This document shows, piece after piece, positions 18,001 through 21,000 of a stretch of 35,118 nt of DNA. Position 1 is the stretch's first letter, and the number at the start of each line of letters is the position of its first letter. Origin of the DNA: a virus (taxonomy: Duplodnaviria > Heunggongvirae > Uroviricota > Caudoviricetes); IMG/VR virus record IMGVR_UViG_2529293069_000022; one strand, written 5' to 3'. The position numbers are program-made.

Positions 18001-21000
18001 TTGATGAGCAAATTGAATTGTTTTTAGATACCAATAAGTTGATTAAAACAAAAAATTTAATTATTGAAAAATCCACTTTACTCTCAGAGCTAATAACTAA
18101 TAAAGTAATTGTAATTCATAATTTAGTTCACAATGGACAAAAACAAGACTACGCAGCATATCATAATAGAATCGCAAGTAGCATTTTTTGGGAATTACTA
18201 TCATCTCCCCCACTTAATCGGACAGACGAAATATATCAAGCATTATTAACCAAAGAAAAAATAACAAATATTATTGAAACTGAGTTCTATAATGACTTGG
18301 ACGCTTTTAGCGTGAAGCAAATTGAATCGATATCAAACGTTTTCAGATTTATTTATAGCTTGAATTATAACTCTGCCATACAATTGCATACCTCTTTACA
18401 GCCTCACAGACAAAACAATGTTATAAATGAAGATGATGTCCGGGATTATCTTGATGTAGTATCAGCAATATCCCACATACCAAAACTAATGGGCTTACCT
18501 CATTATTCTAAAAAAATAGATAAATATCTCCCAACAGCTTTGACAATTAGAGATGGAAGAAGACGAAACACTTCATTCCAAGAAGAGTTGAAAAATCACA
18601 TAAGGGATAATGCTACACTTGCATCGTTGCTTTATGAATATAATAATATAATAGCCTATAAAGTATCAGATGATACGATAATTTCAGCAACCTCAGAAAA
18701 AATCACAAAAATTAACGACTCTAAAGAGAACAATAACCATATTGTTAGGGAATTTGATTTAAGGGTTATATCTACTGATAAAGCAGAGGCGGAACTAAAT
18801 GCTAAATAATTTTATAAAACAAGCTATTGAAGATCACCAATTTATAAAAGTTGAAAGTACGCTAGAAAATATTTCTTTTTTTAAAAAGGAGAAAGATGCA
18901 TTACGTCGATATATAATAACCTACAGAACTGATAAACTTGAAGATGCGAGTTTCATTAATGAGTTAATTATTAACAACACCCCAACTGAACTTTTAGAAG
19001 CTCCAGCTTTTGCAAAAAACACTGATCTTATAATAGTTTTTCAACTCGACAAGCTTTCAAATTACAAGCAATATGAAAAAAGTATATTTGATATAGAAGA
19101 AAATGCTTATCATTTCAAAAAGTATGTATTGTATTATTCAAATGAAGAGAATCAATTAATTTCCGGGAAGAACTTTAATAATCTTAGAGCAGTTCTCTCA
19201 GATCATGAAGAATTCTCCACATATAAAGCAGATCCATCCCGACCCAGCCTGTATAACATGGCAGCTAGAATTTTCATTAAACTACCTTTTTTAGAAATGC
19301 CTGATATAGAAAAGGATATTGTTCCAATTGATTTCCAAATCAACACGCTGGTAGATTCATTAAATTTATCTGAGATATATACTAAGATCAGCACAGCAAA
19401 TAAACAAAGTGATGTAAATTTAGAAATGCTAATTGAGGAATTAATAAATGAAGAACTGGAAGCTATCAAAGCTGAGAATAAATAACTTCAAAGCGTTTGA
19501 TAAAGTCGAATTCGATTTTGAGAGTTCTTCTTTGTTGACACTTGAAGGCCCTAATGGATATGGCAAAACAAGCGTATATGATGCTTTAGAATTATTGTTT
19601 ACAGGAAAAATAAAAAGAATTGTACAACTATGTGAAACAATAATGCCAGGAGGCATTAAAAATTATAGTGATAATCTTTTCTGGAACAAAACAAATGGAG
19701 AGGATGATATCGAAATCAGTGTCGAGATGTCGAATGATAATAATGAGAAACTTTACTTTTCACGCAGAGCACATGCAAAAGATTTAAAAATAATACAGAA
19801 TAATAAAGCAGATAATTTTAGCATATTTAAACTCTATAAATTAGGTTTGTTAGACTCTTACGAAAACAGCACCTTAATTACACAAAACGAACTTGATGAA
19901 ATATTAGGCGAAAAATTCACTGATAACTACAACTTTCTTAACTATCTTGAACAAGGACAGAGTTCATTTATTTTTGCTAACAGTATTAGGCAGCGAAAAA
20001 ATGCTATCAGTGGTTTGATGAACGTTAGTGAACTAACTGAAAACATAAATTTATGTGGACGAGTTCAAAGTGCATTGACGAGGAAATCAACCAGTCTGAA
20101 TTTCATTCAAAAGAGGGATTCAATCACATCTCAAATTCAAGCGATAGGTGTACCAGGAACAAATGACAATAATCCTGTGCAATATGAAAAAATATCAACT
20201 CATCTGACTACGCCATCATGGGATGTTGAGAACCCTTCAATTTTTTCTGATATTGAAACAACAGAAAAAATGAGAATAAAATTTCATTACTTAAAAACCT
20301 AATTACTAACAAAGAACAGCTTCGCGTAATTATTGATAATGCCAGAATAGAAAATTTCATAAGCAAAAATGAAAAACTATTAACCGAGGTAATTAAGGTA
20401 GGACATCATATTGAAGCCTACCCGGAACTGGCTCAAAAGAATAAGATTAACAATGGGATCAATTTATCTTTAAGCATTTTGCGCAAGAAAGAAGATTCCA
20501 TAAGTCAGGATGATATTGATAAAATTAAAGATAATACAAATATTGATATTATCGATTTCAAAAGACGCTTACAACTTAGGGATTTTTACAAAAAAGAAAT
20601 AGGTGAGAAAAATGCAATTCTTGTAGAGATTAGCCAAGCAAGAAAGAAATTAACAGAAGAACATCAAAAGAAAACTTCTCTATCAGAAAAACATTGTTTA
20701 CTTTGTGGGCATGACTGGATAACAAAAGATCTGCTATTGGACGCAATCGATATTAAAAGTAAATCTTTAGAAAGTTTATTAGATAATGTAGGGAAACAGC
20801 TACAAGCCGAACTCGATGAAATAAAGCAATCTAAAGATGCTGAGATTCTGCGTTTGGTAGAAGCTCAAACTCAGCTTAAATTTGACAAAAAAATATTTGA
20901 CAGTTTACAAAAGTCAGAAAGCATATTCGAGAAAATAAAAAAAATAAATGAAAGACTTTCACAAATCGGAATATCTTACCCGCAGACCTTTACAGATTCA

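Follow-up and report, generated by a model that had tools for sequence, protein, structure and literature searches.

In the stretch of DNA analysed here, the gene for the SMC-like ATPase LmuB has been broken in two by the loss of a single A. This stretch, hereafter the window, comprises the 35,118 nucleotides (nt) of the IMG/VR virus record IMGVR_UViG_2529293069_000022 (Caudoviricetes), and it holds a three-gene module that by its sequence is a type II Lamassu system (ABC-three-component, ABC-3C; DdmABC-like), an anti-phage and anti-plasmid system on an integrative island. The initial annotation had described an SMC-like ATPase gene split by a frame change near homopolymers and had offered homopolymer miscalls as one possible cause. 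We assign a probability of roughly 0.88 to the reading that the split is a real, inherited and gene-killing A7-to-A6 deletion in a known defence-system family, and neither an artefact nor a two-gene design.

A one-nucleotide deletion divides lmuB

Both pieces of lmuB lie on the plus strand. The 5′ fragment (19448..20302) encodes 284 amino acids (aa), ends at the TAA at 20300-20302 and is listed in RefSeq as WP_001454474.1, 'AAA family ATPase'. It consists of 274 native residues followed by 10 out-of-frame residues (MRIKFHYLKT) and the stop, and it covers the N-terminal half of the ATPase head, with the Walker A motif (GPNGYGKTS, residues 34-42 of this open reading frame, ORF) and the Q-loop, plus the start of the coiled coil. 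The 3′ part (20257..21768, stop at 21766-68) is in the −1 frame, whose last upstream stops are TGA 20248-50 and TGA 20254-56 and which is open from 20257. It carries the remaining coiled coil with its CxxC apex (C417/C420) and the C-terminal head, including the signature SSGQLS, the deviant Walker B LVLIDD (LIDD) and the H-loop SSH. No start codon precedes TTG 20479 (residue 345) in this frame, and that codon lacks a Shine-Dalgarno sequence; RefSeq lists 20479..21768 as WP_001227352.1, a 429-aa 'hypothetical protein'. The two ORFs overlap by 46 nt, and an A6 run (20265..20270) falls inside the overlap, with a T6 run (20241..20246) upstream. The ORF boundaries and homopolymers given in the initial annotation were thus all recovered on the sequence.

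The two ORFs are one gene, because both match one PADLOC LmuB profile (positions 2-233 for the N piece and 192-597 for the C piece) and full-length homologues span the junction. The 22 closest of these are single proteins of 773-774 aa, ungapped across the junction in a protein alignment, and none is naturally divided at this position. At the junction the homologues read ...SDIETTEK|NENKISLLKNL..., the first frame of the window reads ...SDIETTEK|MRIKFHYLKT* and the second reads ...NENKISLLKNL.... Because the homologue and window frames part at EK|NEN, the frame switch sits exactly in the A run, which bears out the proposed link between the split and the A homopolymer.

DNA alignments told the same story. 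Against the related loci L003, L004, L006, L016 and L023 we found one gap, at the A6 run of the window. Seven A residues stand at this site in Escherichia coli O55:H7 CB9615, 2013C-4465, TB182A and USDA5905, in E. coli WS4437A-1, and in Raoultella lignicola, Klebsiella oxytoca NBRC 105695 and Kluyvera genomosp. 1, the last three being 98.0-99.6% identical to the window over positions 14456-21758. Inserting one A fused the two ORFs into a 773-aa protein identical at 773/773 positions to the annotated LmuB of O55:H7 TB182A (RefSeq WP_000800433.1). This identity and the A7 in relatives together establish the split as a 1-nt deletion, A7 to A6, which puts lmuB out of frame after codon K274. The loci with the intact allele (O55:H7, WP_000800433.1 / WP_000800434.1; Raoultella, Klebsiella and Kluyvera) share 99.6-99.9% nucleotide identity with the window as well as the island context of hxs genes, integrase remnant and Lamassu; they differ in having A7 and a single 773-aa ORF where the window has A6. 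The T6 run, which the initial annotation had noted just upstream, is present as described but is unchanged in the intact alleles; an indel there was ruled out, and the run lies outside the lesion. A naturally split gene was likewise ruled out, as the homologues are all single proteins and the other split forms reflect independent lesions elsewhere in the gene.

The A6 allele is genuine and inherited in one E. coli sub-lineage

A homopolymer miscall would mean that the genome truly has A7 and that the gene is intact. A 1-nt homopolymer change is indeed a typical sequencing error, and the 493/89 and CB9615 assemblies also differ in the lengths of other homopolymers. However, the closed chromosome of E. 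coli O157 493/89 (CP038412.1) matches window positions 17400-21900 at 100% identity, and the same A6 recurs in the older draft AETY01, in several NCBI assemblies, in an ENA metagenome bin and in Logan assemblies. The exact 284-aa product, including its out-of-frame tail, was found in 97 assembly-index blocks and on 56 contigs (NCBI, ENA, Logan, UniRef), and the matching 429-aa C piece on 51 contigs. Elsewhere in their sequence, such as in a gene with repeats, the inspected loci are not the same, which marks them as separate assemblies. The methods used do resolve the A run, since A7 is called in sister assemblies from this lineage (L023). With the closed genome and the 56 contigs, sequencing error was ruled out, and we give the miscall alternative a negligible probability.

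The distribution of alleles places the deletion inside the lineage with the G10 tract. O55:H7 combines a G7 tract in the effector gene lmuA with A7 in lmuB and an intact hxsB (His-Xaa-Ser radical SAM maturase), and the 493/89 lineage combines G10, A6 and an 11-bp deletion in hxsB. Two substitutions separate the window from O55:H7 CB9615 over 5.85 kb, and 9-11 separate it from the copies in Raoultella and K. oxytoca. A look-up of the LmuA product specific to G10 brought out a second configuration: L023 (GCA_018508065.1), representing eight further similar places, has G10 together with an intact A7 lmuB. L023 has no hxsB gene call and is identical to the window at the site of the 11-bp deletion; in 9.2 kb of comparison, the extra A and one single-nucleotide polymorphism (SNP), T61P in the middle-component gene (MComp1), are its sole differences from the window. 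At this SNP (position 18979) the window and CB9615 agree, which makes T61 the ancestral state and removes any need for homoplasy. G10-LmuA occurs on 104 contigs, the A6 product on 56 (plus 7 with an alternative start call) and the P61 MComp1 allele on 39, and these counts, which nearly add up (56+7+39 against 104), agree with the G10 lineage being divided cleanly into two. The pattern fits a change from A7 to A6 that happened once, in one sub-lineage, and was inherited clonally rather than phase-switched.

The same gene has been hit elsewhere. A metagenome contig (L012), whose copy is closest to that of K. oxytoca (2 substitutions), has an independent A6. Its lmuB is lost after the position equivalent to window 20360, 58 nt past the premature stop (L012 10606-10616), where the junction joins sequence homologous to window 32961-34546 (AlpA and DUF6387 genes), an island deletion of ~12.6 kb relative to the window. 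In a Klebsiella locus (L002), lmuB is split into 280 + 493 aa by an independent T7-to-T6 deletion 25 nt upstream, and many further partial lmuB forms occur in Klebsiella pneumoniae and E. coli. The homopolymers in lmuB are ordinary slippage hot spots. The A tract is not conserved, because in distant homologues it is either interrupted (AAAAGCAAA, AAGAGTAAA; L002, L007) or a longer, in-frame A9.

lmuA was probably impaired before lmuB

The initial annotation had counted two of the three module genes as frame-disrupted, and this count held: besides the A6 of lmuB, lmuA has a G10 tract (17615-17624) in place of G8, which puts its native ATG at 17569, preceded by an AGGA Shine-Dalgarno sequence, out of frame. 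In-frame lmuA alleles have either G8 (Raoultella, K. oxytoca, Kluyvera and L012) or G7C (L001, L002, L007 and WS4437A-1) and encode a 412-aa LmuA from an ATG preceded by AGGA. The G7 of all inspected O55:H7 loci and the G10 of the 493/89 lineage are 3 nt apart and share a frame, and the native ATG is out of frame in both. With either tract the sole in-frame start is TTG 17613, which has no Shine-Dalgarno sequence and would cost 15 N-terminal residues, just ahead of the conserved GGFVYQ motif. Tract length was uniform within each lineage (G10 in 6/6 inspected loci, agreement in 4/4 inspected O55:H7 loci). TB182A additionally has one T fewer after the G tract. As the O55:H7 G7 also puts the native ATG out of frame while lmuB is intact there, lmuA was probably already impaired in O55:H7, before lmuB broke.

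Predicted consequence and alternative explanations

The deletion in the A7 run was most likely caused by replication slippage, and it arose on a background where the G10 lmuA tract and the hxsB deletion were already present. In an AlphaFold2 model of a 97%-identical LmuB homologue with the same numbering (mean predicted local distance difference test score, pLDDT, 82), K274 falls at the start of helix 269-287. Translation thus departs from the native frame where the ascending coiled-coil helix begins and stops 10 codons on, and of the ATPase head the 284-aa product retains the N-terminal half alone. For the remaining, C-terminal two thirds of the protein, residue 345 is the first usable start, and it lacks a ribosome-binding site. 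A head of the SMC/Rad50 type requires both termini, linked by the antiparallel coiled coil. The window allele is presumably null and the system off, as Lamassu defence needs ATP binding by LmuB and the LmuB dimer core. The 493/89 sub-lineage of E. coli O157 would then carry a dead Lamassu system.

Some points weigh against this account. The loss of function of the A6 allele is itself a prediction, and the RefSeq annotation of the closed 493/89 genome shows the lmuB pieces as two ordinary coding sequences (CDSs) and marks no pseudogene. If tRNA-Lys slipped by −1 on A-AAA-A, the wild-type reading (...EK-NENK...) would be restored, and traces of full-length LmuB may be made in this way. The link between the A6/A7 and MComp1 alleles comes from counting contigs and inspecting three loci rather than from a whole-genome phylogeny.

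We considered whether the A run and the G tract form a contingency locus that reversibly toggles a toxic defence system. Both A6 and A7 are found inside the G10 lineage, the K. oxytoca-like L012 and the Klebsiella locus with the T7-to-T6 frameshift acquired their lesions independently, and the lmuA tract exists as G7, G8 and G10. Yet A7 is short for a contingency tract, and the run is interrupted in L002 and L007 and hence not conserved. The E. coli A6 tracks a linked SNP and is uniform over dozens of assemblies, the G tract is fixed in length within each lineage among the inspected loci, and no revertant was seen. A contingency locus should have a hypermutable tract that is conserved, and close relatives should carry a mixture of on and off alleles; this is not what we found, and lmuB is probably not phase-variable; we regard such switching as highly doubtful. 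A looser version, in which the homopolymers of the operon (G8 in lmuA; T7 and A7 in lmuB) serve as a possibly reversible mutational off-switch by which enterobacteria repeatedly shed a self-toxic system, is compatible with the independent hits at A7 (E. coli and L012) and T7 (L002) and the three G-tract lengths, but we consider it very unlikely. Were it true, stepwise silencing from O55:H7 to O157, of lmuA and then of lmuB, would have eased the acquisition of plasmids and prophages. Neutral decay accounts for the data no less well than selection does, because the lmuA start was already out of frame while lmuB was intact in O55:H7 and because other cargo is broken (hxsB, relaxase); selection against a toxic system may have contributed. 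The damage to hxsB and the relaxase gene in 493/89 and to hxsC and the DUF6119 gene in CB9615, and the probable early impairment of lmuA, fit relaxed selection on cargo rather than targeted silencing, and we favour neutral decay over selected silencing.

Two further readings would leave the A6 allele functional. Lys codons in A runs are shifty sites, and by our reading of the sequence the −1 tRNA-Lys slip would yield the exact wild-type peptide; recoding, by −1 ribosomal frameshifting or by transcriptional slippage on the A run, could in this way produce functional LmuB. Relatives, however, are all in frame (A7, A9 or an interrupted run), which means that the frameshift is not conserved. The 80 nt downstream have no structure beyond that of shuffled controls (minimum free energy −4.5 kcal/mol, z=0.16), no Shine-Dalgarno-like stimulator is visible upstream, and A6 is below the run length for efficient slippage by E. 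coli RNA polymerase. With no conserved frameshift and no stimulatory element, a programmed frameshift was ruled out; read-through would be at most a trace, and functional recoding is very improbable. Alternatively, both fragments could be made and assemble without a covalent link. SMC/Rad50 heads are built from separate N- and C-terminal halves, engineered split heads exist, and RefSeq calls both pieces CDSs. Such a two-piece ATPase would nonetheless have to start its C-terminal half at TTG, residue 345, without a Shine-Dalgarno sequence, and it would lose ~70 residues of the ascending coiled coil (275-344). No homologue is naturally split here, and splits elsewhere are independent lesions at other positions. 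We see next to no chance that this arrangement operates.

We conclude that the broken lmuB represents the ordinary decay of a defence island whose system family is already known. A literature search turned up no publication dealing with this locus or with Lamassu genes broken by frameshifts. Censuses of defence systems may miscount WP_001454474.1 and WP_001227352.1, fragments of one pseudogene that are listed as proteins. The A6/A7, G7/G10, hxsB 11-bp deletion and MComp1 T61P differences offer lineage markers for the O55:H7 / sorbitol-fermenting O157 complex, and the natural allele pairs (A6 versus A7; G7 or G10 versus G8) can be used to ask whether the enterobacterial Lamassu variant is active.

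The module belongs to the type II Lamassu family

The three genes overlap in the order effector, middle component, ATPase. The first, lmuA (17569..18809, plus strand), has a CTD1 domain (Pfam, E=6.6e-24 for 17569/17613..18809) and matches the PADLOC LmuA profile at positions 3-362 of 373 (E=1.2e-23). Its N-terminus is weakly Cap4-nuclease-like (Pfam Cap4_nuclease, E=0.19, 12 bits against a cutoff of 26); the GGFVYQ motif there resembles Cap4. The split gene matches Pfam AAA_23 and SMC_N, and its intact allele matches the PADLOC LmuB profile at positions 2-597 of 611 (E=3.4e-73). Between the two, in the lmuC position, lies an intact gene (18799..19485, plus strand) that overlaps both neighbours, matches Pfam MComp1 (E=5.9e-12) and is named 'ABC-three component system middle component 1' in RefSeq. 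PADLOC returned no LmuC match for this protein at E<=0.001. We treat it as the LmuC equivalent on three grounds: its Pfam family, the place of its gene in the operon, and published work that takes ABC-3C and type II Lamassu to be the same (bioRxiv 10.1101/2025.06.23.660979). Thus, the module has an LmuB ATPase with all its motifs, an LmuA with the conserved C-terminal domain and a small middle gene between lmuA and lmuB; its genes are not all intact and expressible in the window, where lmuB is frameshifted and the native lmuA start is out of frame.

The invariant residues of LmuB are G34-T41, Q169, S683/G685/Q686, D711/D712, H743, C417 and C420. In the model, the N-terminal head half (1-~190) leads into a long antiparallel coiled coil, which ascends to an apex at C417-x-x-C420 and descends to the C-terminal head half (654-773). 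Foldseek searches with this model returned Rad50 (7zr1, E=2e-12), MukB and SMC as the best matches, and the LmuAB-DNA complex 9ux7 was also matched. Sequence searches of the PDB with intact LmuB and LmuA returned generic SMC/Rad50 heads or nothing, and NCBIfam held no specific family for any module protein.

According to structural papers, type II Lamassu consists of LmuA, LmuC and LmuB and is DdmABC in Vibrio cholerae; the complex detects DNA ends and frees LmuA, which becomes an active nuclease tetramer. The LmuB dimer core holds one LmuA and one LmuC (PMC12663957), and the LmuB Walker A mutant K40A loses both ATPase activity and Lamassu-dependent toxicity. The module resembles the V. cholerae system in its gene order, with effector, small middle component and SMC/Rad50-like ATPase in overlapping ORFs. 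Further likenesses to type II Lamassu are the PADLOC LmuB and LmuA matches, the ABC-3C families CTD1 and MComp1, the deviant Walker B (LIDD) described for LmuB, the short coiled coil with a CxxC apex and the location on an integrative island amid other defence-like cargo. By contrast, its proteins are very distant in sequence from those of V. cholerae, the putative N-terminal nuclease of its LmuA is only weakly Cap4-like and the window copy is defective. With Rad50/SbcC and SMC proteins LmuB shares the fold (a bipartite ABC head, an antiparallel coiled coil and a zinc-hook-like CxxC), but its coiled coil is far shorter than theirs, and instead of an Mre11/SbcD partner there are the LmuA effector and the middle component.

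Island context

The left edge of the Lamassu cassette is the 3′ remnant of a P4-type integrase gene (17146..17417, plus strand, ~270 nt), which RefSeq describes as 'integrase, incomplete, missing N-terminus'; homology to L001 and L002 begins at 17146. The composite of hxs genes, integrase remnant with its junction at 17146 and Lamassu (window 14456-21964) has 98-99.6% nucleotide identity to L003, L004 and L006. Its presence in E. coli O55/O157, Raoultella lignicola, Klebsiella oxytoca and Kluyvera indicates, on the sequences compared, a probable recent horizontal spread of an already rearranged island. Downstream of lmuB, the content varies by host, with a TIR-domain gene in E. coli WS4437A-1, a reverse transcriptase and AAA_21 in L001, and SMODS and SLATT in L002.

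Several other genes of the island differ between close relatives. On the minus strand, hxsB (15266..16643) has lost 11 bp (CCTGATAAGAT) at 15913 relative to O55:H7, Raoultella, K. oxytoca and Kluyvera; the deletion leaves two ORFs, and RefSeq flags the frameshift. In CB9615, hxsC and the DUF6119 gene are frameshifted instead of hxsB. A relaxase gene of the MobA/VirD2 type (23361..24593) has a TGG-to-TGA nonsense change at 23604-23606 (W82*) and is intact, at 410 aa, in CB9615. At window 22425, A7 against A8 in CB9615 alters the C-terminus of a membrane-protein-like ORF (21885..22442; 185 versus 190 aa), and at 22722 the window has T8 where CB9615 has T7. The minus-strand ORF 26052..27344 contains acidic Pro/Glu-rich repeats with a weak Pfam PARP-repeat match. 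Its called length is 398, 404, 426 or 430 aa in near-identical assemblies and 414 aa in CB9615, which suggests variation in tandem-repeat copy number.

No tRNA gene or tRNA attachment site turned up when the window was scanned for them. Positions 1-8291 form the end of a lambda-like prophage with Gam, Bet, Exo, Ead/Ea22 and an integrase (7107..8291), and a second integrase, of the P4 type (9956..11227), follows the prophage end; the window therefore spans tandem mobile elements.

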